From positions 177,252 through 241,251 of the forward strand of contig JAIYBN010000004.1 in the NCBI GenBank assembly GCA_027488515.1: 64,000 bases of DNA, read 5' to 3'. Source of the stretch: Pseudomonadota bacterium (GTDB lineage: Bacteria > Bdellovibrionota > UBA1018 > CAIMNF01). Position numbers and translations under genes: made by a program. This document shows positions 1,839-44,960 of the stretch, piece by piece (within the stretch, counting starts at the first letter, position 1; the number at the start of each line of letters is the position of its first letter). The notes below the pieces were generated by a model that searched no databases, had not been told where the DNA came from, and saw only the letters and a list, made by a program, of their open reading frames with translations.

Positions 1839-2267
1839 TCAACTTTCTATTAGGCTATTTGATCTAATTCTTTTGGCAGCTTTCGAATTACTTTTTGTGG
1901 CAAATTCTCCCCACTCTTTCATATGCTCAATGATTGGCAATAGTGTTTCTCCAAAAATGGTCAACGAATACTCCACTTTTGGCGGGACTTCTGTGTAAAT
2001 TTTACGATCGATAATTCCATCCATTTCAAGGTCTCTTAATTGGGATGTGAGCATTTGTTTTGTGATCGAAGGGATTGATCTTTGGAGTGCGCCAAAACGG
2101 TTGATTTTATTTTTCACCAGGAAAATAATCACTGGCTTCCATTTTCCTCCAATGACTTTTAAACATAAAGTGACCGGGCAGTTCTGAGCTTCAACTGATT
2201 TAGTAATCGAAGACTTCGCCTTTCCTTTTTTAGGAAATGAAGAAGAATTAGTTATTTTGTTATCCAT
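1839..2267 (-). CDS. HxlR-family (DUF24/MarR-like winged-helix) transcriptional regulator
   Basis: 142 aa. The motif CPVTLCLKVIGGKWKPVIIFLV ... RFGALQRSIPSITKQMLTSQLRDLEMDGIIDR is typical of HxlR regulators. It is transcribed divergently from an oxidoreductase gene, the classic HxlR arrangement. Low-GC codon usage. Confidence 0.8.
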   Translation of the reverse strand: MDNKITNSSSFPKKGKAKSSITKSVEAQNCPVTLCLKVIGGKWKPVIIFLVKNKINRFGALQRSIPSITKQMLTSQLRDLEMDGIIDRKIYTEVPPKVEYSLTIFGETLLPIIEHMKEWGEFATKSNSKAAKRIRSNSLIES

Positions 2268-2290
2268 TTTAATTTACCTTATTCTTTATA

Positions 2291-2328
2291 TAGTATGAAA
2301 AAACATACTAGGTCATAAATATGTGACT
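2291..2328. promoter_or_regulatory. two palindromes in the HxlR/oxidoreductase divergent promoter region (candidate operators)
   Basis: TAGTATG-aaaaaa-CATACTA (2291-2310) is a perfect 7-bp inverted repeat. GTCAtaaatatgTGAC (2313-2328) is a second one. Both sit between the divergent starts at 2267 and 2391. Confidence 0.35.
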
Positions 2329-2390
2329 AATTGTTAAAAACACTCTATTGCTCCATCATAACTTAAGAAAGACAAATGAAGGAGTAAAAT

Positions 2391-3347
2391 ATGAGAAAGC
2401 TCATTTATCAGCTTTATGGAAAAAGTCATGATAGCAAATTAGTTGAAATTGCCCCACCTGTTATATCAACTGCTAGCCAGGTTTTAGTAAAAGTAAAAGC
2501 AGCATCCCTTAATCCTGTTGATTGGAAAATTCGTCAGGGAGAGATGAAGTTGTTCACTGGCAGTCAGTTCCCTCGTGGAATGGGGTGCGATTTTTCAGGA
2601 GTAGTTTTAGATGCGGGAAGTAATGCATATCGATTTAAAAAAGACGATCGTGTTTTCGGTTTCATTCCATTCAAAGAAGCTGGTGCGTTTGCTGATATTG
2701 TGATTTGTGATCACTCCTTAGTTGGTCATATTCCAGATCATTTATCGTTTGAAGAAGCTAGTTGTCTTCCGATGGCCGGATCAGCAGCTCTTACATCGCT
2801 AGAATTAAAGGTGCATATAAATAAAGGCGATCGGGTATTTATTGGAGGTTGCACCGGTGGTGTAGGGCATTTGGCTGTTCAGTATGCCAAATCAAGAGGA
2901 GCGGTTGTTATTGGAAGTTGTGGTTCAATTGATTTTGAAAAAGCAAAATTAATAGGTGTTGATGAAATTTACGATTATTCGAACCTATTGAGTCAGAACA
3001 TTCGTGAGTGTTCTATTGTTTTTGATACTTCAGGGAAAATGAGTCGCCAAGAAGTGCTTAAACTCTTGCCTAGTCGCTTGTTTGGAATGATTAAAGGTGG
3101 AAGTTTTGTGAATTTGAATCCAACTCCAGCGTCTATGCTTAGAAGTGTTTTTTCGAATGTCTATAAAGTTGTCATTACTAAAGTAACTCCCAGCTTGATT
3201 CAGCGATTGGCCGAGCTGGCTAAAGATAAAAAACTAAGTCCATTAATTGGGGAGAAATTTGAATTTAGTGAATCGATCAAGATCATCGAAGGTTTGGAAA
3301 CAGGAAAGAAGCGATCGAATGGGAAAGTTGTATTTACGTTTAAATAA
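2391..3347 (+). CDS. NADPH:quinone oxidoreductase / zinc-type alcohol dehydrogenase-like (MDR superfamily)
   Basis: 318 aa with strong RBS GAAGGAG. Contains ASLNPVDWKIRQG and GGCTGGVGHLAVQYAK, a Rossmann GxGxxG typical of quinone oxidoreductase-like MDR proteins. Confidence 0.8.
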   Translation: MRKLIYQLYGKSHDSKLVEIAPPVISTASQVLVKVKAASLNPVDWKIRQGEMKLFTGSQFPRGMGCDFSGVVLDAGSNAYRFKKDDRVFGFIPFKEAGAFADIVICDHSLVGHIPDHLSFEEASCLPMAGSAALTSLELKVHINKGDRVFIGGCTGGVGHLAVQYAKSRGAVVIGSCGSIDFEKAKLIGVDEIYDYSNLLSQNIRECSIVFDTSGKMSRQEVLKLLPSRLFGMIKGGSFVNLNPTPASMLRSVFSNVYKVVITKVTPSLIQRLAELAKDKKLSPLIGEKFEFSESIKIIEGLETGKKRSNGKVVFTFK

Positions 3348-3370
3348 TAGAAACTGAAAAGGAGAAGAAA

Positions 3371-4024
3371 ATGAAAGTATTAATTTTTTTAATGAGTATG
3401 AGTGTCGGTTTTAATTGTCTTGCGAAAGATGAAAATCTAATTTCACAGAAGAGAGTAGCCAGTCATATTAAGGGTAAATGGGTAAGTATTTCATGTGAAC
3501 TTCGCCCTCGTGAAAATCGCGGTACTGGGGGAAGTGTTGAGTCATTCTGGTTAAAGAGGGAATTTTTCTTTGATGGTAAAGATGGCTTTAAAGGAATAAT
3601 TAGAGGATTCGCAGATCCACTCTGCGAACAACCTGTACAGGATTTTGAGTTCGAAGGGAATTTAATCTGGCGTGGCCCTCATCCAGTAGCAAAAGAAGCG
3701 CAGTCAGTTGATTATGAACTCTCAAAAGAATTTGCAATTATTCCAAGATCACAAGCAGCCGTAGATCAAATGAACTCTCTACCGCCTGGTGCTTGTGGCG
3801 ATAAAAAGTATGCACTGAATGAGCGTCAGAGTATTTTAAAAAAACAGTGTATTCTTTTTAACATAAAAGCTGGCGAAGCAGTTAAGGATCACGATCTCGT
3901 TTACCTTTACGGATTTAATAACCTTCTTTTCATGGGCGCCAAACACGTGAATGGACAAGGGTTTTACACTGAAGATTTAAGGCCTAAGGGCGGACTTCAA
4001 ATCCCTCTTGTGAAAGCAAAATAA
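3371..4024 (+). CDS. hypothetical secreted protein (low-GC islet)
   Basis: 217 aa with RBS GGAGAAG and N-terminal signal peptide MKVLIFLMSMSVGFNCLA. No recognisable motif. AT-rich codon usage unlike the rest of the window. Confidence 0.6.
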   Translation: MKVLIFLMSMSVGFNCLAKDENLISQKRVASHIKGKWVSISCELRPRENRGTGGSVESFWLKREFFFDGKDGFKGIIRGFADPLCEQPVQDFEFEGNLIWRGPHPVAKEAQSVDYELSKEFAIIPRSQAAVDQMNSLPPGACGDKKYALNERQSILKKQCILFNIKAGEAVKDHDLVYLYGFNNLLFMGAKHVNGQGFYTEDLRPKGGLQIPLVKAK

Positions 4025-4054
4025 ATTGCGGAAATCTTTGTTGTAGATATTTGA

Positions 4055-4084
4055 GCCCACAATAAATTGTTGTGGGCTTTTTTT
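4055..4084 (+). terminator. rho-independent terminator
   Basis: gcccacaa / ttgtgggc form an 8-bp stem with loop taaattg, followed by TTTTTTT, just after the stop at 4024. Confidence 0.6.
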
Positions 4085-4091
4085 AATGTAA

Positions 4092-4247
4092 CTACTCGAT
4101 GATGTTAGCCTTTGGCCACTTCGATGCCTGAGAATCCTTAATCATCTGAATTTGCGCCTTACGCACTTCAAAAAGAATTCTAGGTAGATTTCCAGATGCG
4201 ACTGCAACGAAAGCTAGAGTTACTGCAATAGTGACTAGTGATTTCAT
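4092..4247 (-). CDS. possible small secreted peptide (51 aa, below ORF-track cutoff)
   Basis: Manual translation gives MKSLVTIAVTLAFVAVASGNLPRILFEVRKAQIQMIKDSQASKWPKANIIE. RBS AAAGGA lies 7 nt upstream of the ATG. Signal-peptide-like N-terminus. No homology support. Confidence 0.3.
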   Translation of the reverse strand: MKSLVTIAVTLAFVAVASGNLPRILFEVRKAQIQMIKDSQASKWPKANIIE

Positions 4248-4595
4248 AAATACGTCCTTTCAAATTTACGATCTAAAATCTAGATCGTAGGTTTTTAAGT
4301 TTTTCCCTCCAGACAAAGCAGTGCTTTTACCTAGAGGGATGAAAAAACCCTTTTAAATTTCGACTCTTGCAACGCTATGGATGCCCGTAAATTTTAGGCA
4401 TCCATTTTTTATGAGAAGTTTCTTTCAGGCATCTTCGGGGAGTACATTGGGCATCCACGTAGGTGTCTTTTGCGTGACTTCCAGTGACGTCGAACAATCA
4501 GAAAAACTCGATAGAAAATTATTACTTTTCCTCTGTTTTCTTCTTTGTTTTAAGTGATTTGTGATTGATTTTGATGAGTTATTTTTGGTTCGGCA

Positions 4596-4624
4596 GCCGG
4601 TTTTCAAATTTGATGAAAACCGGC
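4596..4624. repeat. perfect 9-bp stem hairpin (GCCGGTTTT-N11-AAAACCGGC) 10 nt beyond the 3' end of tRNA-fMet
   Basis: Read directly. Not followed by a T-tract on either strand. Possible tRNA 3' processing/termination structure or part of an islet junction. Confidence 0.4.
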
Positions 4625-4633
4625 TCCGAAAAT

Positions 4634-4710
<77 letters not shown>

Positions 4711-4940
4711 TCAAAAACTTCAGGTGTTTCCTGTGCTTCGAAGCCTAATCCCGAGGGGATGCGAAGTCAACGAGATTCATGGATGAGGGAACAAAACTCT
4801 CAGAATTCAGGCCACTTGGACCGGGGGTCGGGTAGGACAAATCGTACGAATTCAGCCTGATTTCAGCATAAAACTGGAAATTATTTATTTACTTTATCAA
4901 AACACTCAGGTAATATTCGAACCTCGCAAAGGAACCCTTC

Positions 4941-7430
4941 ATGAAAAAACTCCCCCTCATCCTTCTCGCACTGTTTACCTTGAGCTTCATGAGCGCGTGC
5001 ACCCGCCAGGCACGCCCCCCGATGGTCTCGGACGTGAAGACGGCCGATGCGGGCCTTCGGGTGAGTGTGGCGCCTTCGTCTGACACCCCCGCGAATGCCA
5101 CCTCTGCGACAAAGCCCGAGGAAGGGAAGGTCAAGGCGATCACTGCCGAGATCATGCTGAAGAAAAGCGAGATTCTGGGAAAGGAATTCTTGTACGGGGC
5201 CGACCTCCAGTATTCCTCCCTGTATGACGAGGACATGGATCTTTACAACCAGAGCATGGCGATCGGCCACGTTCCGGTTTACTTCAAAATCAACGGAAAA
5301 GAACTCCAGCTGATCGAAGATGCGAAGCGCTCTTACCCGAGCGATGTGAATCACCCCGATCGTCTGGTCAGCCGCTACAAGATTCTCGCTGAAACCGAAG
5401 AAACCCTCACGGTTTCGGATGCCGATTCTTCCGAGTTTTTGACCGGCGCAGTGGTCGGAAGCCAGAAGTCTCCGAAGGACCGTTGGACCCGGTCGCTCGA
5501 GTTTGTGAAGGAGGGGAACTTGGTTCTCCAGGAAACCAGTATGCTCCTGGCTGATGGATCGGTGGTCGAGATGATGGAGTCCGTGATGCCCAAGGAGGCG
5601 ATCGCTCCTTCGTCTTCTTTCGAGGCGATCCGCATGGACCCGACCGATCCGACCGGCGGACTCGAAGGCAAATTGTCCCGCTTCCGGATGTTGTCCGGCG
5701 AAACCATCCGCAAGGGTGAAGAGAAGCTCGCATTCGCCCAGCATTTTGACATTGGCGATGGCAAGACCATCGATTGGTATGTGACGTCGAACATCAAGGA
5801 CGAGCATCTTCCGGTGGTGAGGGACGCTCTTCTCGGTTGGAACCGTTATTTCAAGAACTTCGCAGGGATCGAGCGCGAAGTGGTGCGCTTCATGGGGCGC
5901 CTGCCGGAAGGCGTGAAGCTCGGAGATCCCCGTTACAATGTGATCAACTGGGACAGCCGTCTCGTGGCCGGTGCGGCGTACGAGTCCCAGGCGTCCGACC
6001 CTTTCACCGGAAAGCAAAGTCACAGTCTGATCTACATGCCGGTTGCCTGGTTCCAGATCGGAGCCGATTATTGGTCGAACGGGAAGTATTCTGACAAAGT
6101 CGAAGAGTCCGGTACCCCTGGCAAAAAACAAGATGACAGTCGCGCCTTCCGGAACCGTTGCATGCGCGACCTGAAGGCTGTGAATGAGTCCCTCCGCTCC
6201 GGTCGGATGACCCGGGAAGCCGCTGAAAAATTCGCCATCCAACTCATGAAAGGGACTCTTTTCCATGAAGTCGGGCATGCGCTCGGGCTCGCCCACAATT
6301 TCAAGGGTTCGCTCACTTTCGACCGGAGCAAGCCGGACAGTTTGTTTTCGAGCTCGATCATGGATTACAACGACTACGAGATCGAACGTCAGGTGTTCCA
6401 GGACGACAGCGCCGAAGGGCCTGTGCTCGAGTACGACCGCCAGGCCTTGAGTGCGCTCTACAACGGGATGAAAGACGTGAAGAGCTCGGACCCGGTGATG
6501 CCGGTCTGTAACGACGCCGAAGCCGACACTGAAGAGGCTGGTGCAGTGGACCCGACCTGCATGCGCTACGACATCGAGAAAGATCCGACCCTGTCTGTTG
6601 AGACGGCGATCCAGCGATTGAGCGAGGAAAGCTTGTCCGGAGATGTTTCGCTGGCAGAAGCACTTCAAAACATGCAAAAGGCGGTACTGACCCCCGAAGC
6701 CATCGCAGCGGTGAATACGGAGAGCGATCTGAACGGCTTGATGACCCGCCTGGTTTCGGATTTGACCGGGGTCCTTCGCTTTTATCACTTGTCCGGGAAA
6801 GCCTCACTGGCTTCAACGGTGCGGAGCAATTTGAAGTCCCTCAGGCCTTTTTTCGCCGATGTGATCGGTGATCTTTCTGAGGCTGGAATGAGGAACCGGG
6901 CTTTGAACGGACTCAAGCATGCACTCGGACTCAAATCCCTTTCCGCTGCCGCCCAGAAGCAGATCCTGGTTTTGGCCGAGACCGCGGCAGAGTCACTGAA
7001 GGCGAGTCCCTTCATGCAGGCCCAAGGGAGTTCCGCAGACGCCATCGCCATGAACATCAAGATCGGAGTCTTCTCCTTCGGCAAGCGGTTCGAGCGTGAC
7101 AGCAGGGGAGGGTTGCCCCGTCTTCGTGCCTCGATCCTGGCGAGGCTCGGTCACATCGAGGGTTTGCCCTTCTACTTCGGTCAGCTGGACGGAGCCAGCC
7201 TGGATGTCGAATCGGAAATCACCGGGATCCTTGCCCGGACCGCCGGAGATCTGAGCGCCACCCTGAACGAGCGCTTGTATGCGGCACGCTCACTGAAGAC
7301 CTTCAGTGGTCGTCCGGGGGTCGATGCGATGATCTCCATCTTGAAGTCACAGGTCGAATCCGAGCTCCGGTCGGCAAAGAGTCATGAAGAGCGCGAAGCG
7401 TTTCTCTTGATGAAGCGCCTCCTGGGCTGA
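4941..7430 (+). CDS. lipoprotein zinc metalloprotease, metzincin-type (HEVGHALGLAH + Met-turn)
   Basis: 829 aa. Lipobox LSFMSAC after a signal peptide. Extended zinc motif HEVGHALGLAHNF (HExxHxxGxxH) with a downstream SIMDY Met-turn. Confidence 0.85.
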   Translation: MKKLPLILLALFTLSFMSACTRQARPPMVSDVKTADAGLRVSVAPSSDTPANATSATKPEEGKVKAITAEIMLKKSEILGKEFLYGADLQYSSLYDEDMDLYNQSMAIGHVPVYFKINGKELQLIEDAKRSYPSDVNHPDRLVSRYKILAETEETLTVSDADSSEFLTGAVVGSQKSPKDRWTRSLEFVKEGNLVLQETSMLLADGSVVEMMESVMPKEAIAPSSSFEAIRMDPTDPTGGLEGKLSRFRMLSGETIRKGEEKLAFAQHFDIGDGKTIDWYVTSNIKDEHLPVVRDALLGWNRYFKNFAGIEREVVRFMGRLPEGVKLGDPRYNVINWDSRLVAGAAYESQASDPFTGKQSHSLIYMPVAWFQIGADYWSNGKYSDKVEESGTPGKKQDDSRAFRNRCMRDLKAVNESLRSGRMTREAAEKFAIQLMKGTLFHEVGHALGLAHNFKGSLTFDRSKPDSLFSSSIMDYNDYEIERQVFQDDSAEGPVLEYDRQALSALYNGMKDVKSSDPVMPVCNDAEADTEEAGAVDPTCMRYDIEKDPTLSVETAIQRLSEESLSGDVSLAEALQNMQKAVLTPEAIAAVNTESDLNGLMTRLVSDLTGVLRFYHLSGKASLASTVRSNLKSLRPFFADVIGDLSEAGMRNRALNGLKHALGLKSLSAAAQKQILVLAETAAESLKASPFMQAQGSSADAIAMNIKIGVFSFGKRFERDSRGGLPRLRASILARLGHIEGLPFYFGQLDGASLDVESEITGILARTAGDLSATLNERLYAARSLKTFSGRPGVDAMISILKSQVESELRSAKSHEEREAFLLMKRLLG

Positions 7431-35846: not shown

Positions 35847-36595
35847 AGGCGTTTTTCCTGCTGGTCGGATTCATTTCTTCCGGCGTGTTCGCACTCCTGG
35901 TCGGATTCGTTTCGCTCCCCCTGTTGCCGCTGATTCCTTCTTTACGTTATCGACTGAACGAGGTGTTCATCAGGCCGTTCAGTGTCTACGCACGCGCGTT
36001 GGTGGGATTGAAGCTGGTGATCGATCCCGCTCAAAAAGCATCGATTCCACGGCCGTCCGTGATGATCGGAAATCATCAAAGCGGGCTCGATTTCGCGTTG
36101 ATCAGTCAGTCCTGCCCGACCGGTGTGTTGATCGTCGGGAAGCGGGAGTTGCTCCGGATTCCCCTCTTCGGGTGGTTTTTCTGGCTTGCTGGCAACCTGC
36201 TCATCGATCGCAAGGATCGCTCGGGTTCCCTGGCGAAGCTCTCGGCAGTGAGGGACCGGTTGGTGGAACACGGGCTCAACCTTGCGATTTTTCCGGAGGG
36301 AACCCGGAGCAAGACGGGAGAGTTCCTTCCTTTCAAAAAAGGGGCGTTCCAGATCGCAGCCGAGAGCGGGCTCCCTCTGGTTCCGGTGGTGTGTTCGAGT
36401 CTGAGGGGCAAGGGTGTCTGGGAGAGCTTCGAGTTAGCGGGCGGACATGTCGTGGTTTCGATTCTGCCGGCTGTGGACACCGCAGAGTGGAAGGGGAAGG
36501 ATCTCGGACCCTTGATCGCCTCGGTCCATGCCCGGATGGTGGAGGAATTCCATCGCGTGAATGCCAGGGCCGAGGAGCTCGATGCGAAGGGTTGA
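35834..36595 (+). CDS. plsC: 1-acyl-sn-glycerol-3-phosphate acyltransferase
   Basis: Acyltransferase motifs NHQSGLD (HxxxxD) and FPEGTRS. N-terminal TM helix. Confidence 0.8.
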   Translation: MGLLKAFFLLVGFISSGVFALLVGFVSLPLLPLIPSLRYRLNEVFIRPFSVYARALVGLKLVIDPAQKASIPRPSVMIGNHQSGLDFALISQSCPTGVLIVGKRELLRIPLFGWFFWLAGNLLIDRKDRSGSLAKLSAVRDRLVEHGLNLAIFPEGTRSKTGEFLPFKKGAFQIAAESGLPLVPVVCSSLRGKGVWESFELAGGHVVVSILPAVDTAEWKGKDLGPLIASVHARMVEEFHRVNARAEELDAKG

Positions 36596-37316
36596 TCTCC
36601 CGGGGCAGGGTCGGCTTCTGGCTGTGTTCACGGGGTTCATGTTGCTCACCGTTTCGTGTGCCGGCCCCGTGGTCAAGGAAGGGGGCGGTGCCCGGTACGA
36701 GGTCAGGCGGATCGATCTCACCCGCGTCCGCTTTCACCGGCCCGAGCTGGTTCCGGTTTCACCGGGAGAGCTGGATGAGTCCGACAGGAAGGACGAAGTC
36801 CGATCCTGTCTCCGTCCCTCGGTTCTTTGGTCGGAGGTGTTGTCCCGTCACGGGTCAGTCACGAAGTGTCTGAACGGGCTCAAGGCGGGGACGGTGGCCT
36901 ACCGACTGACGAAGCAGGCCTCGCTCGAGTTGGTGTTCGAGCCCGAGTCTGAAAATGATCCGTCCTGCCTCGCCCGGGAGTTACCGAGGATTCCTCTTCC
37001 CCGGGAGCTCTATTTTTATGCCGAGACGGAACCGTCCGGAACCCTCGATGTGCTTTCCCTCAGTCTCAATCCGAAACACCACGCCTGGGTGGACTGGAAT
37101 TTCCTGACCCCGCGTCCGAGAATCCGGTTTCCGGTACCACCTTCCCGCGAGTTGAGGGGGGAGAGGGATCTGGAAGCCTGGCTCCTGACCTCGGTCTTTT
37201 CTTTGTTTTTCCCCGATCAGGGCCCGATCCGGGCGGCCTATGTGCCCGAGTTCGATGCGAAATCGTGCTTTGACGGGCAGCGAAACCCGGGTGTTCCCGC
37301 GGTCTTTTGGCCTTGA
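36582..37316 (+). CDS. hypothetical lipoprotein
   Basis: Signal peptide with lipobox LLTVSCAG. No known motif. Start at the internal ATG 36582. Confidence 0.5.
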   Translation: MRRVDLPGQGRLLAVFTGFMLLTVSCAGPVVKEGGGARYEVRRIDLTRVRFHRPELVPVSPGELDESDRKDEVRSCLRPSVLWSEVLSRHGSVTKCLNGLKAGTVAYRLTKQASLELVFEPESENDPSCLARELPRIPLPRELYFYAETEPSGTLDVLSLSLNPKHHAWVDWNFLTPRPRIRFPVPPSRELRGERDLEAWLLTSVFSLFFPDQGPIRAAYVPEFDAKSCFDGQRNPGVPAVFWP

Positions 37317-37351
37317 CGGGGAATCGTATCCTTGGCTACGCTCGCGGCACT

Positions 37352-37651
37352 ATGACGACTTGGGTGATCATCAGTTGGGTGTTCGTGGCAATTCTGACCG
37401 CAGTGAACGTGTTCGTGTTCTTGAAGCTCAAAAAAGCTTCCGAGCAAATGATGAAGATGGCGTTCCCCGGTTCCAAAAACATGAACGATGCCATGGGCCA
37501 GATGCAAAAAATGATGAGCGGTGCCGGTGGCATGCCTCCGAATCTGGGCGCATTGATGGGACAGATGAACAACCCCCAGATGCAGGCTCAAATGAAAGCC
37601 GCCATGGACATGCTTGCAAAAATGCAGCAGGGCTCAAAGGGGCGTCGCTAA
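37352..37651 (+). CDS. small Met/Gln-rich membrane protein
   Basis: One TM helix (TTWVIISWVFVAILTAVNVFVFL), then MMKMAFPG...MNDAMGQMQKMMSGAGGM...MGQMNNPQMQAQMKAAMDMLAKMQQ. The 3' end overlaps the convergent DTW gene by 18 nt. Confidence 0.4.
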   Translation: MTTWVIISWVFVAILTAVNVFVFLKLKKASEQMMKMAFPGSKNMNDAMGQMQKMMSGAGGMPPNLGALMGQMNNPQMQAQMKAAMDMLAKMQQGSKGRR

Positions 37652-38230
37652 TTTCCGGAGCGTCTCAGAAAAGCGGCTCTTGAGGATGGATTCGATCTCA
37701 GGATCGAGTCCCAGAAACGAGAGTGTTTCCGCGGCAGCTTCGAGGGTCGAGACGCATTCGGGTCTGGGCTCCTTGCGGATGTTGCCGTAGCGTGATTTCT
37801 CTTTCGGAATGATGTAGATCCTCTTGGTTTTGAGGAGCCACGCATTCCTCCACCAGAGTGTTTTGGCCTGGGCCCAGGTTCCATCGAGAAGGATCAGTCC
37901 ACCGACTTCGGGCGATTCCGGTGGATCCTTCGGATTCCCTTTTTTATCGAGGTAGTAAATTCCCGGTTCGAGGCGGCCGCCGGTCTCTGAATGCTTCTTC
38001 GTGCCGAGGTACAGGGTGTGCCAGAGTCCGGGCCGGGCGAGTTCCGGGTGATCTTCAACGCCTTTCCAGCCTTTCAGGGCTTGGGGAAGGCTCCTCCACG
38101 ACAGTCCGGTTGCCACGTGGCAGGGGTCGAGCATGGAGGTGAGCATGGCCGCAGAGCCGGCTTCCTTGTCCTTTCGCGAAGGCTCCTGGGGATGCTGCAG
38201 GATCAGAACCGGGACCGGGATTTTGAACAT
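37634..38230 (-). CDS. DTW-domain protein (tRNA acp3U aminocarboxypropyltransferase-like)
   Basis: Conserved LILLDGTWAQAK (DTW motif) with upstream Cys/His. Confidence 0.7.
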   Translation of the reverse strand: MFKIPVPVLILQHPQEPSRKDKEAGSAAMLTSMLDPCHVATGLSWRSLPQALKGWKGVEDHPELARPGLWHTLYLGTKKHSETGGRLEPGIYYLDKKGNPKDPPESPEVGGLILLDGTWAQAKTLWWRNAWLLKTKRIYIIPKEKSRYGNIRKEPRPECVSTLEAAAETLSFLGLDPEIESILKSRFSETLRKLATPL

Positions 38231-38294
38231 GGCACCGTTTTACCGATTTCAGCCTTCTCAGTCCACCCTGCTGTGAGCTATTCTCAAGAACATC

Positions 38295-39224
38295 ATGAGT
38301 CCCGACCAAATCCTGGACCGTTTTCACGACCTCGCCCCTTGGACCCGTTTCGACGAGTGGACGGGCATCTGGATGGAGATTGGCGAACAGAGCGTCTGCA
38401 TCCTCTTTGGTGAAGACCAGGAGGCTGATTTCCGGATGTTGATCCTCCGGGGTCCGGATCCGGCTCAACGTTACCTCGGTTACCGCAGTGGGGATTGGAT
38501 TCCCGAGTTCGGACTCGATTTCGCCACAACGGACGGGATCCGTGTTGGAATTTCGGAAGACCATGTCGAACACTATGAGTCCTGCCGTCCCGGCCTTCCG
38601 CCCGAGCCCCTCCGGCTCGACGAAAAACAGCTTCTTTTCGAAGTCCTCGACGGGATCAATTTCCTGGTCGGTCGATTGGATGACGACAAGATCCCCGTCC
38701 TCGGGGAGACGGAGGACTACTGTTACCACCTCTGGAAAGTGGCGGGAACCTGGAGAGGCGAAGTGAAGGAATTCCCGGAAGAGGTGTTCTCGCGTTTCGA
38801 CCCGATTGAAGTCCAGGAGTCCCGCATCCAACGGATTCAGGCTGCAAAGCTGCCACAAGACGGAGTTTGGGAAGCCTCACCGTTTTTCCTGCCTGCGACG
38901 CGGTTCCAGGGGAACCAAGAAGTCTTTGTCCAGTGTGCGGCTGTGGCCGAGCGGGGCACGGGATTGCTCGGTCTGGTGACCCTTGAGGCACATGCCAGTC
39001 CCGAACAGGAAACCGCTGAGGCGTTGCTCGGGTCCATCGAACAGCAAAAGAGATTGCCTCATTTTCTCGTGGTCAAGGAAGAGCGTCTCGCAGAGCGGCT
39101 GCTCCCCTTGGTTCAAAGGCTCGGAGTCCAGCTCCGCTTGAGGAAACGTCTCCGTGAATTGGAAGAGATCCGGGAAGGCATGATTGACGAATTTCCCGAC
39201 GAGGACAACGAAGGGTCAGCCTGA
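38295..39224 (+). CDS. hypothetical protein
   Basis: 309-aa ORF with good coding character. Acidic C-terminus. No recognisable motif. Confidence 0.5.
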   Translation: MSPDQILDRFHDLAPWTRFDEWTGIWMEIGEQSVCILFGEDQEADFRMLILRGPDPAQRYLGYRSGDWIPEFGLDFATTDGIRVGISEDHVEHYESCRPGLPPEPLRLDEKQLLFEVLDGINFLVGRLDDDKIPVLGETEDYCYHLWKVAGTWRGEVKEFPEEVFSRFDPIEVQESRIQRIQAAKLPQDGVWEASPFFLPATRFQGNQEVFVQCAAVAERGTGLLGLVTLEAHASPEQETAEALLGSIEQQKRLPHFLVVKEERLAERLLPLVQRLGVQLRLRKRLRELEEIREGMIDEFPDEDNEGSA

Positions 39225-40274
39225 AACGCGGTACGCCTCGAATTCGCCGTCACCGTCTTGTGACTTGTACAGGACCGCGTAGAGTCTGCTTCCCAATGCG
39301 GTTTTCATACGCAGGTATGCACGACTTCTCGCCCCACCGGTCAGATCCAGGTAGGAGGCGCTCACTCCCGGGTCGAGGACGAAGGCATGGTAGCTGATGA
39401 TCCTGCCCCGGGTGTCGAAGATGGTCACCCCGTCGGTTTCCAACATGTTCCGGATCAGATTGGAATAAGCGAAGAGCGCGCTGGTCGTTTCGGATGACTT
39501 CCGGGTGAGGTGGGCGCTCAAAACTTGTACCGGATCAAGCGGAGGATGGAGATGAATCCCGTCTTTCAGCAGTTCAGGTGGCGGGTGACCGGCCTCGAGA
39601 ATCGCGATCAGGCATCCGTGAGGTCCTGTGAAAAGGGCTTCCATGATTTTTTCGTAAAACCTGCGGAGCTTGTTCCGGAGCGGGGGAGGGGCATCCCGAC
39701 TCACAGCTTTCGAAACCGACTGGATGAGAAGAGCCGGGTGGTCCCGCTTCTCTTTTTTTCCAGAGGTGTCGAAGTAGATGACCGGTCCTCCGAATGCGCG
39801 GATCTCGACGACCGATTCACCCGATCGCTGCACCCCGATCAGAAGGGTGTCGGATTCGGCGACGGTTCTGAGTCGATGAAAGCTCGGTTCATGGAGGGGC
39901 GAGGGGGAGTTCCGGAAGATTCCGTAACGGATACGATCCTGGTCCATCAGCAGGTAGACCGCCCAGTCCCGGTCGCGGGTGAGGGGGCCACACGACTTCA
40001 GGGCCTTTTTCACAGTCAGGGAGTGGAAGGGGCCCTCTCCAATGGGGATGGGATCCGCTCCTTTCAGCCGCGTTTGAATTTCTGCCAGATCCGACATGAG
40101 GAACACATCGGGTGCTTTTCCGGAACCTTCCTCACGAAAACCGACCACACCGAGGACCACTTCGAGCAACAGTTCGCGGAAGGGTTTCGGAATCCGGAAC
40201 TCCCGTTGCTGGTTGTGGATCAACTCTTCCAAAGTCTGCCTGGGTGAACCGAAAACGGCCATCGATGCGGACAT
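39216..40274 (-). CDS. DAC (diadenylate cyclase / DisA_N)-like domain protein with non-canonical RSR in place of RHR
   Basis: The C-terminal half aligns by eye with the CdaA/DisA DAC domain. GCLIAILE matches GALIVIE. ETDGVTIFDTRGRIISYHAFVL matches LHDGAVIIRNGRI. LTGGARSRAYL matches GTRHRAAIG. The N-terminal roughly 190 aa are unknown. 352 aa. Confidence 0.5.
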   Translation of the reverse strand: MSASMAVFGSPRQTLEELIHNQQREFRIPKPFRELLLEVVLGVVGFREEGSGKAPDVFLMSDLAEIQTRLKGADPIPIGEGPFHSLTVKKALKSCGPLTRDRDWAVYLLMDQDRIRYGIFRNSPSPLHEPSFHRLRTVAESDTLLIGVQRSGESVVEIRAFGGPVIYFDTSGKKEKRDHPALLIQSVSKAVSRDAPPPLRNKLRRFYEKIMEALFTGPHGCLIAILEAGHPPPELLKDGIHLHPPLDPVQVLSAHLTRKSSETTSALFAYSNLIRNMLETDGVTIFDTRGRIISYHAFVLDPGVSASYLDLTGGARSRAYLRMKTALGSRLYAVLYKSQDGDGEFEAYRVSG

Positions 40275-40347
40275 TAGAGCGATTCAGATTTTTTGAAAAG
40301 GCGGGGCGTGCAAAGCCCGCAATGAAAAGTCCGCAGAGAGGTTCGTG

Positions 40348-41793
40348 TCAGCGGGCCAATTCGACCCGCACCCTGCGTCCTTTGACTCTTCCTGTCTCCA
40401 AACCGGACAGCGCCCGTCTGGAAACCCGCTTCGAGATCGCGACGAATGAGATATAATCCTGGATCTCGATTTTACCGATATCTTCTCCTGCAATGCCGCA
40501 TTCCCCGGTCAGAGCTCCCAGAATGTCACCCGGGCGGATTTTGTTCTTCCTTCCTGCCCCGATGAAGAGGGTTTCCATTTCAGAATCGAGCTTCAAGTCC
40601 GCACTCAGCTCGTTCAGTGATCGGTTCCTCAAGTCGGGTCCTTCCCGTGACTGGATCTTCATCCCGGTCAGTTGTTCGAGTGGTGTGAGTTTTTCGAGTT
40701 GTTTTGCGAGGATCAATGTCATCGACACTCCGGACCTTCCGGCCCGTCCGGTCCTTCCGATACGGTGAACATAGACTTCAGGCTTGAGGGGGAGTTCAAA
40801 ATTCACCACAGTGTCGACCGATTCGACATCAATCCCTCTGGCGGCGACATCGGTGGCGATCAGGATCCTGATGCTGCGGTTTCTGAATCTCGCCATCACC
40901 CGTTCACGTTCCGGTTGTTCGAGGTCGCCGTACAGGGCTCCGGCGCTCACTCCCATCCGTTTGAGTTCACGTTCGAGGGCCGAGGCGTCCGCTTTGAAGT
41001 TGACGAATACGATGCAACTTGCCGGATCGCGCTCTTTCAGCAGGTGGAGCATCAGCTTCAAACGGTCATTGAAGTCGACGCGATTTCCATGCAGTGGCTC
41101 GACCATGTAGGCCTGTTGTTCGATGTCAGGCCGGGTGAGTGTCTCGGGTTCGATCACGATCCGGACCGGATCTTTTTGGATCGATCGACTCCATGTTTCG
41201 ATGGTGGTCGGAAAAGTCGCCGAGAAAAGCATCGTGTGTCGGGAGGAAGGGAGTCGGGTGAAAATGAAGTCCATTTCTTCCTGGAATCCCATCTCGAGCA
41301 TCCGGTCCGCTTCGTCGAGCACCAAGGTCCGGATCGATTCGATCTCCAGGGTGTTTCTCCTGAGGTGGTCTCCGATCCGCCCGGGGGTTCCGACGACGAT
41401 GTGGATTCCTTTTTCCAAAGCGACGATCTGAGGTCCGATCGGAACTCCACCGGTGACCGGAAGGACTTTCAATCCGATGTGTTTTTTACCGAGTTTCCGG
41501 ATTTCGCCTGAGACCTGAATGGCGAGTTCACGGGTGGGGCACAGGATCAACGCTTGGAGTGCCCTGTTCCGTTGGAGATCCGGGCAGTCCCGGTCCAGCC
41601 GTTCGAGCAAGGGTAAGGTGTAGGCGGCGGTTTTTCCGCTGCCGGTCGCAGACTGTCCGATCAGGTCCCGACCCTGGAGCAAATGGGGCAGGCTTTGTGC
41701 CTGGATCGGAGTCGGCGTGGAGTAGCCCAGTTCCGTCAGGACCGCCTTCAGTTTGTCTGACAGGAGAAAATTTTCAAATGTGTTCATGAGCAT
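40348..41793 (-). CDS. dbpA: DEAD-box ATP-dependent RNA helicase with DbpA-type C-terminal RNA-binding domain
   Basis: Q-motif, GSGKT, PTRELA, DEADRM, SAT and HRIGRTGRAG motifs. C-terminal DbpA-like RBD (GALTGECGIAGEDIGKIEIQDYISFVAI). Confidence 0.85.
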   Translation of the reverse strand: MLMNTFENFLLSDKLKAVLTELGYSTPTPIQAQSLPHLLQGRDLIGQSATGSGKTAAYTLPLLERLDRDCPDLQRNRALQALILCPTRELAIQVSGEIRKLGKKHIGLKVLPVTGGVPIGPQIVALEKGIHIVVGTPGRIGDHLRRNTLEIESIRTLVLDEADRMLEMGFQEEMDFIFTRLPSSRHTMLFSATFPTTIETWSRSIQKDPVRIVIEPETLTRPDIEQQAYMVEPLHGNRVDFNDRLKLMLHLLKERDPASCIVFVNFKADASALERELKRMGVSAGALYGDLEQPERERVMARFRNRSIRILIATDVAARGIDVESVDTVVNFELPLKPEVYVHRIGRTGRAGRSGVSMTLILAKQLEKLTPLEQLTGMKIQSREGPDLRNRSLNELSADLKLDSEMETLFIGAGRKNKIRPGDILGALTGECGIAGEDIGKIEIQDYISFVAISKRVSRRALSGLETGRVKGRRVRVELAR

Positions 41794-41818
41794 CGGGACT
41801 GACCGGAATCCGGAAATG

Positions 41819-41840
41819 AAAAAGCCGGCGGTGCGCCGGC
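41819..41840 (-). terminator. hairpin + T5 after tRNA-Ala (minus strand)
   Basis: GCCGGCG-gtg-CGCCGGC followed on the minus strand by TTTTT. It lies only about 26 nt upstream of the dbpA start, so it may act as a partial terminator or processing site. Confidence 0.45.
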
Positions 41841-41855
41841 TTCATTGGAGTTGAA

Positions 41856-41931
41856 TGGTGGAGGTACACGGATTCGAACCGAGGACCTTTTCCATGCCAT
41901 GGAAACGCTCTACCAACTGAGCTATACCCCC
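41856..41931 (-). tRNA. tRNA-Ala (anticodon GGC)
   Basis: The reverse complement gives a 76-nt cloverleaf GGGGGTA...TACCTCC-A-CCA with the G3:U70 alanine identity pair and anticodon loop ATGGCAT. One U-U mismatch in the T-stem. Confidence 0.85.
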
Positions 41932-44069: not shown

Positions 44070-44762
44070 TCAGAAGACGAAGGGGCCGATCGGGGTTCCG
44101 CTGTTCAGGTACAGGTAGACCAGGGCGTTCAGGATCTGTCCGGTTCCGCCGGTTGCGCCGATTTGATTGGTCATCCCACCGTAAGGATTGTAGCCGCCGT
44201 AAGGGTTGTTCTGATTGAGAATGAGGTTCTGGTAGGCGCGGATGGCGATCGAGCTCACGCAAGGACCGGTGGTGTTGGTCGGCATACCGCCGTTCATTCC
44301 ACCGTTCATTCCGCCCCACATTCCGCCGGAGGCGTACATCACGGTTTGGATCACTGAAGGCGCGAGTTGGATCATGCCGGTGATGTTGGCTTGTCCGCTT
44401 TGATTGAGGGTCGCGCCGAGTTGAAGGGTTCCGTTTCCGCTCTGTTTGGGTTGGTACTGGATCATTCCCGCACCCATTCCGCCGAGAGAAGTTCCTCCCA
44501 TGGCCACTTGGCCGAACTGGCCTGCACCCGGGATGTTACCGGCGTAGAGTGCGCCCGTGTTCATGCTGGCATTGGTGGCGGAGAAACCGAAGGAACCGGT
44601 CTGCAGAGGAACGCACCCTCCTTGAGTCGGGATCTGTCCCATTCCGGTACCGTTCGTATTGAGACCGAACTGATTGTAGCTCAGGGGTTGAGCGTTTTGG
44701 CCACAGGCCGACAGAGCCAGGGCAGTCACAGCCAAACTGAAAAAGCGGGTAAAGGTTTTCAT
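44070..44762 (-). CDS. Gly/Asn/Met/Gln-rich low-complexity lipoprotein
   Basis: Start at the internal ATG 44762. Lipobox LALSACG. Repeats GGMNGGMNGGMP and NPYGGYNPYGG. Upstream is a roughly 190-nt AT-rich region with the near-palindrome GTATAAAATTTATAC (44934-44948). Confidence 0.55.
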   Translation of the reverse strand: MKTFTRFFSLAVTALALSACGQNAQPLSYNQFGLNTNGTGMGQIPTQGGCVPLQTGSFGFSATNASMNTGALYAGNIPGAGQFGQVAMGGTSLGGMGAGMIQYQPKQSGNGTLQLGATLNQSGQANITGMIQLAPSVIQTVMYASGGMWGGMNGGMNGGMPTNTTGPCVSSIAIRAYQNLILNQNNPYGGYNPYGGMTNQIGATGGTGQILNALVYLYLNSGTPIGPFVF

Positions 44763-44960
44763 AGTCCTCATTTCCTTTCGCATAAATGAACTCTCTATCC
44801 GAGTAAGGTGCAAGAGGGGTGCCAATGGGTGATCGAATGAGTTCTGTAATTCAAGTTATTGGAATCATTGATTAATTAAACGAGCCGATCCGAAGCTGAT
44901 CCAAACGAGACCCCAGATGGGTCCCTGAGGAGCGTATAAAATTTATACACCTGTCGGGTT

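Follow-up and report, generated by a model that had tools for sequence, protein, structure and literature searches.

DAC (c-di-AMP cyclase) domains were long viewed as a uniform family that makes c-di-AMP only. The canonical members DisA, CdaA/DacA, CdaS, and CdaM/DacM are found with the Pfam model PF02457 and carry the motifs DGA and GTRHR. They require a head-to-head dimer (PMC8573169), and RHR is described as an ATP/ribose/phosphate-binding motif, with mutagenesis limited to an RHR-to-AAA triple mutant (PMC3328451; 10.1101/2022.03.11.483894). Preprints from August 2026 reported signals other than c-di-AMP, cUA among them, for divergent DACs of defence islands. Defence DACs that retain no more than 'select residues' of DGA/RHR are still active, and 3'3'-cUA is a product that they can form (10.64898/2026.08.10.743927). 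PanS (Panoptoo/PanDA) has a divergent DAC domain with partial DGA/RHR and is active, with a product that can be 3'3'-cUA (10.64898/2026.08.10.743927). It is a DAC-only protein of ~150 aa encoded in a two-gene operon with the 2TM-beta membrane effector PanE, in accessory or defence contexts. DS-2C/CdaG (CBASS-DAC) consists of DACNG, DACNH, and DAC in ~550-575 aa (10.64898/2026.08.10.743927; PMC13069673; PMC13092281). Cyclic dinucleotides are the products of all DAC domains so far characterised, the recent defence examples included (10.64898/2026.08.10.743927; 10.64898/2026.08.10.743972).

The gene studied here lies in a window of 64 kb (the whole stretch of DNA that was analysed) and runs convergently into a second gene with a 9-nt overlap. 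The ORF list contained both frames, of 352 aa and 309 aa, as described in an earlier reading made from the letters of the window (hereafter the sequence-only reading). The features of the locus are given below, with residue counts taken from the columns of an alignment of 130 diverse family members.

39216..40274, minus strand: DAC-like gene from the ORF list, encoding a two-domain protein of 352 aa.
39741..40274, minus strand: N-terminal alpha/beta domain, about residues 1-178, with E48, E49, P55, K93, W104, and G118 conserved.
40125..40136, minus strand: REEG motif, R47-G50 (E48 128/130, E49 130/130).
39219..39689, minus strand: C-terminal DAC-fold domain, about residues 196-352.
39615..39620, minus strand: H219-G220, start of the first core strand (H 123/130, G 130/130).
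39426..39434, minus strand: D281-G282-V283, checked by translation as DGV, counterpart of the DAC 'DGA' (D 130/130, G 129/130).
39318..39338, minus strand: G313-G-A-R316-S317-R318-A319, checked by translation as GGARSRA, counterpart of the DAC 'GTRHRAA' (R316 130/130, R318 123/130).
39252..39263, minus strand: S338-Q-D-G341, checked by translation as SQDG, in the penultimate strand (S 129, Q 110, D 128, and G 129 of 130).
38295..39224, plus strand: DUF6930 neighbour gene, 309 aa (Pfam PF22007, E 3.8e-15), given as context only.
41856..41931, minus strand: tRNA-Ala(GGC), called by ARAGORN and Rfam.

Translation of the DAC-like gene probably starts at Met5 (40262), which gives 348 aa at 39216-40262, because most of the closest homologues have 348 aa and begin at the Met5 position. 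An identical 348-aa protein was present in NCBI-derived data. The gene is under strong purifying selection, with dN/dS of 0.04-0.08 against loci L057 and L042.

Unlike the canonical DACs the 352-aa protein is not found by PF02457, it has no transmembrane segment, DisA linker/HhH, or YbbR, and the family to which it belongs has Ala for the Thr of GTRHR, R-x-R for RHR, and DG[IV] for DGA. The DAC domain of the family is C-terminal, behind a ~180-aa domain absent from the DAC architectures checked. Like PanS, the family has a divergent DAC domain with partial DGA/RHR, and its paired clades (those with a downstream partner gene) likewise combine two genes in an operon with accessory or defence surroundings. 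However, PanS is minimal whereas our protein of 352 (348) aa has the extra 180-aa domain, and the partner in the family is soluble, ~440 aa, and without the transmembrane segments of PanE. The downstream space at our locus is taken by the convergent DUF6930 gene rather than by an operonic 2TM-beta (S2TMbeta) effector. In DS-2C/CdaG, as in the family, the DAC domain follows uncharacterised N-terminal sequence, for which a sensory role is supposed in DS-2C/CdaG. DS-2C/CdaG is associated with CBASS or defence islands, and one paired relative in the family adjoins a patatin and nucleotidyltransferase pair. Its DAC domain is Pfam-detectable whereas that of the family is not, and the protein here is 350 aa with no Pfam match in the N-terminal region (DACNG/DACNH models are assumed to be in Pfam).

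The sequence-only reading had matched the C-terminal half to DAC domains, and three kinds of comparison bore this out. An hhalign comparison of the C-domain profile with a DisA-type DAC profile, built from 46 PF02457-positive sequences, aligned 100 columns (Prob 90.5%, E 1.3e-6), and a repeat with an independently derived alignment gave Prob 90.3% and E 1.5e-6. The predicted monomer structure (pTM 0.88) had the DAC alpha/beta fold in its C-terminal half, and its nine best Foldseek matches were all DisA/CdaM. The only PDB sequences matched by the C-domain profile were DisA, the DisA D75N mutant (with a lower score), and CdaS, at E 0.013-0.15. The C-terminal half is thus a true but very divergent DAC-fold homologue, similar beyond chance and visible to sensitive methods only. 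A PF02457 HMM search, which had been proposed as a check, gave no match to the 352-aa protein at E<=1, nor when the cutoff was relaxed to E<=10. Single-sequence searches of Pfam, NCBIfam, and PADLOC returned nothing useful, and phmmer against PDB sequences returned noise alone. PF02457 was the commonest Pfam family across the 130 family members, yet it matched 8/130, all below threshold (best E 0.0023). Two other matches were dismissed as spurious, NF006263 to the 352-aa protein (E 0.007) and a herpesvirus capsid protein to a 6-sequence profile searched against the PDB (E 0.006).

Alignment of the catalytic residues placed RSR exactly on the RHR motif and D281-G282 on DGA, as the sequence-only reading had proposed. 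D281-G282-V283 aligned with MDGAIVL of DisA and HDGAVLV of CdaS, so the Asp and Gly of DGA are retained, and the third position is V here and I/V in the family vs Ala in canonical DACs. R316-S317-R318 aligned with the RHR of GTRHRT/GTRHRA, with S317 instead of His, and the Thr ahead of the first Arg is Ala in our protein and in the family. H219-G220 aligned with the G-A-L strand of DACs, which reads HGALIVV in CdaS. S338 is probably equivalent to the conserved Ser of DisA 'ISQRR' (consensus ISISQRR), judged from order and spacing in a region that hhalign left unaligned.

Five residues were invariant across the 130 members (E49, G118, G220, D281, R316), and E48, P55, K93, W104, H219, D238, G282, F298, G313, G314, R318, S338, D340, and G341 were conserved in at least 90%. 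This core was identical between paired clades and solo clades (those without the partner), and the conservation of E48/E49 held in both alike. Position 317 was variable (R 59, S 27, K 16, T 13, Q 5, L 5; n = 130), and His was outside these six commonest residues. The replacement of His by Ser is therefore real but not specific to this protein, since His is lacking family-wide, and R-x-R is a trait of an old, large family rather than a local loss. That the His is 'catalytic', as had been stated, is not established, because the published descriptions are of a binding motif. An inactive cyclase had also been suggested, but full inactivation looks unlikely, because the DGA Asp and its Gly, the two Args, and the Ser downstream of them vary little or not at all and dN/dS is so low.

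The N-terminal ~180 aa had no recognisable relative in Pfam, profile, or Foldseek searches, consistent with the ~190 aa previously described as lacking any recognisable domain. No Pfam family was found in this region in the 352-aa protein or in the 130 relatives. The possibility that it is a degenerate second DAC was rejected at the sequence level, as hhalign of the N-terminal domain against the C-terminal domain and against DisA was negative.

An exhaustive profile search with a cutoff of E<=1e-3 recovered 680 representatives (clusters at 50% identity), of which 288 passed E<=1e-30. Almost all were ~350 aa with full-length matches. A word-index homologue search had returned 6 proteins, which made the family look tiny. 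We gathered 107 genomic loci from at least 10 phyla with a back-translated motif pattern. The 352-aa protein matched the family HMM over its full length (348 bits, E 1e-105) and contained the invariant set of the family, E48/E49, K93, W104, G118, H219-G220, D238, D281-G282, F298, GGARxR, and SQDG. By these sequence criteria it is a member of a large uncharacterised 'N-domain + DAC-like' family, an architecture defined here. Longer members (413-678 aa) offered neither an informative Pfam domain nor a fusion to the partner, and at the sensitivity used no members were found in phage records or complete E. coli genomes. Because the Pfam DAC model fails on its members, the family may well go unnoticed in surveys that rely on Pfam signatures, despite its size and phylogenetic breadth.

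In many phyla the DAC-like gene forms an operon with the ~440-aa partner, which was co-directional and immediately downstream in 49/85 loci with room for it. The partner had no match in Pfam, PADLOC, or PDB sequences. Five of six partners checked for hydrophobicity had no window above threshold, and the other had two borderline windows. Examples of paired members are WP_118121356.1 of Vibrio sp. dhg (partner WP_118121355.1) and WP_174012849.1 of A. tumefaciens (partner WP_174012848.1). Paired loci often had defence genes close by, and the neighbours listed included pAgo, SIR2-APAZ, DrmD, Cas1, ThsB, a CBASS phospholipase, Dsr2, and capP. On pAtCG920 the paired operon adjoins a patatin and nucleotidyltransferase pair, and on a Vibrio plasmid it adjoins an R-M system and IS3. 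The apparent association with defence islands, read from lists of neighbours, belongs to the paired clades and not to the clade of our protein. Bdellovibrionota and Myxococcota, including the gene at 39216..40274, have solo chromosomal copies; the Myxococcus xanthus orthologue lies on NZ_JABFNS010000001.1 at about 41.6-42.8 kb. No downstream partner was found in their loci, and a search of the full 64-kb window for partner homologues came back empty even at E<=10. The solo loci of the two phyla had assorted housekeeping genes around them and no neighbours in common. Paired copies were also found in Gamma- and Betaproteobacteria, which usually have no c-di-AMP signalling, and this argues against a role as a pure c-di-AMP receptor.

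The best overall explanation is a divergent member of the DAC-fold family that acts as a nucleotide-signal synthase, and we give this reading a probability of roughly 0.5. An active synthase is the most likely state, for which the active defence DACs with partial motifs are a precedent. The locus is a real, selected gene of a Bdellovibrio-like genome, encoding a cytoplasmic protein in which a novel ~180-aa alpha/beta domain precedes a highly divergent DAC/DisA_N fold. The DAC-like domain retains the residues with which canonical DACs bind ribose and phosphates and form the bond, namely the DGA Asp and Gly, both RHR Args, the downstream Ser, and an aromatic residue of the intervening hairpin. 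Our inference is of an NTP-binding protein that produces a nucleotide signal when it self-associates. The signal might be c-di-AMP, although the altered motifs make some other (cyclic) nucleotide more likely. The N-terminal domain, itself conserved, may be a regulatory or ligand-sensing module, or may help to complete the active site. Several observations count against a synthase. The RHR His is lacking and the preceding Thr is Ala, either of which could abolish or alter catalysis, and PF02457 stays below significance. The solo copy has no recognisable effector or receptor nearby (none was found in the 64-kb window), and the defence-island neighbours are those of paired clades. The real activity might also sit in the conserved N-terminal domain, with the DAC-like domain a mere binding module. 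If active, the family extends DAC-fold chemistry and regulation, and a nucleotide signal may have gone unrecognised in a Bdellovibrio-like predator.

A broader version of the synthase reading is more tentative and should be held as the less probable form. Here the family would be a new class of DAC-fold second-messenger synthase, with R-x-R, a novel sensor, and a signal other than 3'3'-c-di-AMP. The two-gene form would represent an anti-phage or stress-signalling system not described before, and the solo copies of predatory Bdellovibrionota and Myxococcota would have been domesticated for cell physiology. If the family is active, the paired operon is also a candidate two-gene signalling or defence module with a putative effector.

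A pseudo-enzyme is a doubtful alternative, though the best of those without synthesis. The protein would bind a nucleotide (ATP, c-di-AMP, or one arising from phage or stress) without catalysis and relay occupancy to its N-terminal domain or to a partner protein, an option that the sequence-only reading put forward. The family-wide loss of the RHR His and preceding Thr fits such a sensor, as does a divergence so large that PF02457 fails, and the invariant acidic and basic residues of the N-terminal domain might serve as its output or form the actual catalytic site. However, enzyme-derived sensors usually lose the catalytic acid, whereas the DGA Asp is present in 130/130 members and G282, R316, R318, and S338 are conserved too. 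The form of DisA used for trapping product is the D75N mutant (PDB 4yxm title). The paired copies in proteobacterial hosts generally without c-di-AMP also count against a sensor. An inactive protein would be a case of a receptor derived from a DAC, and we found none described in the literature read.

It is unlikely that the DAC scaffold carries out another chemistry, in which the N-terminal domain replaces the second DAC protomer and the reaction is NMP transfer to a protein or small molecule, or nucleotide hydrolysis, with no cyclic dinucleotide made. With a pTM of 0.88 the two domains are confidently predicted to pack as one unit, the invariant E48/E49/K93/W104 would fit a composite active site, and the motifs depart from those of canonical DACs, but we found no precedent among DAC-fold proteins in the literature.

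The 309-aa neighbour was previously described as having no recognisable domain, but contains DUF6930 at residues 178-296. A functional pair of this protein with the DAC-like protein, implied by the sequence-only reading, is very improbable. The 9-nt convergent overlap and the retention of the layout in L042, L057, L089, and P0004's contig could suggest a pair. However, these are all close Bdellovibrionales relatives, the only group in which the two genes adjoin, and synteny in their genomes extends over the entire block (enolase, DTW, acyltransferase, and others), so the adjacency has no specific signal. In the ~100 other loci, among them those of Myxococcota and of further Bdellovibrionota, no DUF6930 homologue was adjacent, and the two genes are not co-transcribed because they are convergent. 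The DUF6930 gene is an unrelated neighbour in lineage-specific synteny and not a family-wide partner. The least credible alternative, that the 352-aa protein is unrelated to DACs and resembles them by chance, could draw on the missing Pfam and NCBIfam matches and on profile E-values in the PDB of 0.013 at best, but is practically dismissed by the hhalign and Foldseek results.

No other DisA-type DAC was found within the 64-kb window, and the terminator scan made no call at the hairpin upstream of the DAC-like gene. In the relatives L057, L042, and L089 the tRNA-Ala(GGC) is directly upstream of the DAC-like gene, whereas here a dbpA helicase gene (40348-41793), assigned by its DbpA domains, separates the two.

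The DAC-like gene belongs to a divergent family with the diadenylate cyclase (DAC) fold that is widespread but unstudied. The gene, its neighbour (both from the ORF list) and the motifs located by sub-range translation were as follows:

39216-40274, minus strand, DAC-like gene, 352 aa
40125-40136, minus strand, REEG motif
39615-39620, minus strand, HG motif
39426-39434, minus strand, DGV motif
39318-39338, minus strand, GGARSRA motif
39252-39263, minus strand, SQDG motif
38295-39224, plus strand, neighbour gene, 309 aa

The second Met of the 352-aa ORF is the start of an identical 348-aa NCBI protein and of the closest homologues (mostly 348 aa), so the gene is likely 39216-40262; residue numbers below follow the 352-aa ORF. 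Nearby proteins were 88-98% identical to those of two MAGs, 'Bdellovibrio sp. ZAP7' (L057) and one of Bdellovibrionales (L042), which places the source of the window close to them within Bdellovibrionota. Purifying selection on the DAC-like gene is strong, with dN/dS of 0.04 and 0.08 against orthologues in two Bdellovibrionales MAGs, values that are approximate because dS is near saturation. Public annotation of the family was 'hypothetical protein', the sole exception being a Pyxidicoccus UniRef entry, 'DAC domain-containing protein'.

PF02457 did not match the 352-aa protein in a single-sequence Pfam scan, even with the cut-off relaxed to E ≤ 10; nothing meaningful came from NCBIfam or PADLOC. 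The protein is not PF02457 by the curated threshold and lacks an intact RHR. Because that Pfam scan was empty, there was formally no significant DAC profile match, the result that the sequence-only reading had set against its own DAC assignment, but more sensitive independent tests overturned it. An exhaustive profile search gathered 680 cluster representatives (288 at E ≤ 1e-30), nearly all ~350 aa and matched end to end. DAC was the most frequent Pfam family in 130 members, but weakly (8/130, best E 0.0023). The C-terminal-domain profile had only three matches among all PDB sequences, each a DAC protein: DisA (E 0.013), its D75N mutant (lower score) and CdaS. Aligned by hhalign with 46 PF02457-positive DisA-type sequences, this profile gave a probability of 90.5% (E 1.3e-6, 100 columns), and an independently derived C-domain alignment gave 90.3% (E 1.5e-6); the N-terminal domain, as control, gave 1.8%. 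AlphaFold2 on the 130-sequence alignment returned a confident model (pLDDT 93.3, pTM 0.88) whose top nine Foldseek matches were all DisA or CdaM. These PDB, hhalign and Foldseek matches bear out the DAC-like domain proposed for the C-terminal half. Profile-based surveys may well miss a family that, like this one, escapes the DAC model of Pfam; the Galperin 2023 survey reportedly covers 22 DAC architectures.

All alignments agreed on the motif register. H219-G220 fell on the G-A-L strand of DACs (HGALIVV in CdaS), D281-G282 on the D-G of DGA, and G314-A315-R316-S317-R318 on G-T-R-H-R, confirming the DAC resemblance and the placement of RSR on the RHR motif. The 352-aa protein shares its fold, motif order and key residues with canonical DACs, and these results show a DAC-fold homologue with the Asp/Gly/Arg/Arg/Ser set retained. 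Position 317 in the 130 members was R (59), S (27), K (16), T (13), Q (5) or L (5), with His not among these six commonest residues; on these alignments the Ser read there in place of His is a family trait and not specific to this protein. Surrounding positions were nearly invariant (D281 130/130, G282 129, G313 128, G314 129, R316 130, R318 123), as were H219 (123), G220 (130), D238 (117), F298 (125), S338 (129), D340 (128) and G341 (129). Clades with and without a partner gene (paired and solo) were equally conserved at positions outside the DNA search pattern. The Thr preceding the first Arg in canonical DACs was Ala in 115/130 members, and the Ala of DGA was Ile or Val. The hairpin that separates the DG and GGARxR motifs holds an invariant aromatic residue (F298, together with Y/F295), a possible counterpart of the adenine-stacking Tyr that CdaA and DacM have in this region (PMC10167629; 10.1101/2022.03.11.483894). 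Calling the RHR His catalytic was an assumption, since we found no literature test of that His alone: RHR is described as an ATP/ribose/phosphate-binding motif (PMC3328451; 10.1101/2022.03.11.483894), M. tuberculosis DisA carrying the triple change of RHR to AAA lost ATP binding and activity (PMC3328451), and the first Arg contacts ribose in DacM (10.1101/2022.03.11.483894). The invariant active-site floor of PanS is D71, G72, G107 and R108 (10.64898/2026.08.10.743927).

Residues ~1-178 formed a confident alpha/beta domain (AlphaFold2) with invariant or near-invariant E48, E49, P55, K93, W104 and G118. Searches of Pfam, NCBIfam and PDB sequences gave no match to this domain, which also had no Foldseek neighbour above noise and no sequence similarity to the C-domain, DisA or the partner protein, in keeping with its description as lacking recognisable domains. 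The pTM of 0.88 implies that, in the model, both domains pack as a single unit.

We favour, at a probability of about 0.5, an active enzyme that would bind NTP and make a nucleotide signal on self-association, and that the N-terminal domain would regulate or complete. A product other than c-di-AMP is plausible because the motifs are altered, and PanS, whose product is cUA, offers a parallel (10.64898/2026.08.10.743927). The sequence-only reading was correct in its observation and partly right in its interpretation: the DAC-fold homologue and the place of RSR on the RHR motif hold, but Ser is a family trait, and the retained Asp/Gly/Arg/Arg/Ser set and the strong constraint make full inactivation unlikely. 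A non-catalytic nucleotide sensor is a possible but clearly less likely alternative. A dedicated c-di-AMP receptor is disfavoured because paired copies occur in proteobacteria that usually lack c-di-AMP. Different transfer or hydrolytic chemistry, at a composite N/C active site, is less likely still. A functional pair with the 309-aa protein is very doubtful. That protein is not without recognisable domains, as had been thought, and carries DUF6930 in its C-terminal part (PF22007, E 3.8e-15). The two genes are convergent, as first read, with their 3' ends overlapping by 9 nt, and therefore cannot be co-transcribed. Outside the window a DUF6930 gene adjoined the DAC-like gene only in three Bdellovibrionales loci (L042, L057, L089) and the contig of homologue P0004, all syntenic throughout (enolase, DTW-domain protein, acyltransferase and HMGL/biotin-carboxylase genes), and was absent beside it in all other loci among the matches listed; no functional link is evident. 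Given the profile and structural matches, it is scarcely credible that the 352-aa protein is unrelated to DACs.

One genome per species was scanned with a back-translated motif, which found at least 119 loci, at least 107 of them true family members. Loci listed span Myxococcota, Bdellovibrionota, Bacteroidota, Planctomycetota, Acidobacteriota, Alpha-, Beta- and Gammaproteobacteria, Clostridia/Christensenellales, Bacillus and others. Among the matches listed, 49 of the 85 loci with room carried a ~430-440-aa partner gene downstream in the same orientation, abutting the DAC-like gene or overlapping with it, an arrangement also present on the contig of homologue P0006:

L003-L119 (49 loci), partner genes downstream of the DAC-like gene
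L120 1900-3225, partner gene downstream of the DAC-like gene
L121 9043-10374, partner gene downstream of the DAC-like gene

The partner protein had no Pfam, PADLOC or PDB sequence match, and six members scanned for hydropathy were essentially devoid of hydrophobic segments. AHxGxNNFYNEP and LGNxYG are among its conserved motifs. Its relatives number at least 388, every one of them labelled 'hypothetical', and are scattered among strains of Acinetobacter, Achromobacter, Pantoea, Aeromonas, Vibrio, Burkholderia and Rhizobium. Strong PADLOC matches near paired operons included pAgo, SIR2-APAZ, DrmD, Cas1 (I-F), ThsB, CBASS phospholipase, Dsr2, RmrA and capP, and Pfam matches were HTH_3, Peptidase_M78, PIN, SIR2_2 and transposases. 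A Vibrio plasmid operon (HTH, DAC-like, partner and 204-aa genes) adjoined a BsuBI/PstI restriction-modification system and an IS3 element, and on A. tumefaciens pAtCG920 the paired operon was divergent from a CBASS-like patatin and nucleotidyltransferase pair. This context tentatively suggests a module of defence islands or of the accessory genome, and the DAC-like gene with its ~440-aa soluble partner is a candidate undescribed two-gene system. The 352-aa protein differs from PanS, a minimal protein of ~150 aa whose partner is of the 2TM-beta type (10.64898/2026.08.10.743927), and from DS-2C/CdaG, which is DACNG + DACNH + DAC of ~550-575 aa (descriptions of both: 10.64898/2026.08.10.743927; 10.64898/2026.08.10.743972; PMC13069673; PMC13092281). 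Significance would be much greater if the family makes a new signal or the paired form is a defence system. By identity clustering the 352-aa protein falls in a solo clade with other Bdellovibrionota, Oligoflexia and Myxococcota (30-38% identity); no partner gene occurred near any solo-clade locus or anywhere in the 64-kb window, and solo-clade neighbours were assorted housekeeping genes, none common to different phyla.

The DAC-like gene was the most diverged of its syntenic block: the L089 copy (4565-5671) was 38.7% identical to that at 39216-40274, with flanking DUF6930, DTW, orf114 and acyltransferase proteins at 51-84%, and clustered with Myxococcales and Bacteriovoracaceae copies. Either rapid evolution or the exchange of one allele for another in situ could explain this. 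The DTW-domain protein (PF03942, E 9e-25) and two ORFs without Pfam match (251 and 114 aa), in the region of 37634-38230 (minus) and 36561-37651 (plus), were kept with the block in Bdellovibrionales relatives. L057, L042 and L089 each have a tRNA-Ala(GGC), at 2942-3017, 1550-1625 and 5839-5914 respectively, immediately upstream of the DAC-like gene and in the same orientation. In the window, at 40348-41931, the two are separated by an inserted gene for a DbpA-type DEAD-box helicase (40348-41793), and P0004's contig has a 384-aa gene without Pfam match in the dbpA position; the spot resembles a small variable site beside a tRNA. The interval from the dbpA stop to the DAC-like start contains a G+C-rich hairpin (GCGGGC...GCCCCGC) and, after it, CTTTTCAAAAAA (about 40289-40320, minus strand). 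This hairpin is probably the dbpA terminator, and the DAC-like gene would therefore have its own promoter. Consensus scans did not call this terminator and found no sigma-70-like promoter in 38100-40500. A 251-aa ORF without Pfam match (44070-44825, minus strand) has an N-terminus resembling a signal peptide and a low-complexity body rich in Gly, Asn, Gln and Met, with repeats such as GGMNGGMNGGM. A GC-poor stretch (2001-4710; GC 0.376 vs ~0.57 elsewhere) adjoins a tRNA-Met (4634-4710) and may be a horizontally acquired islet. It carries genes for a zinc-type alcohol dehydrogenase (2391-3347) and for a protein of 217 aa (3371-4024) that has an APCDDC domain (PF14921, E 1e-7; named from the animal protein APCDD1).
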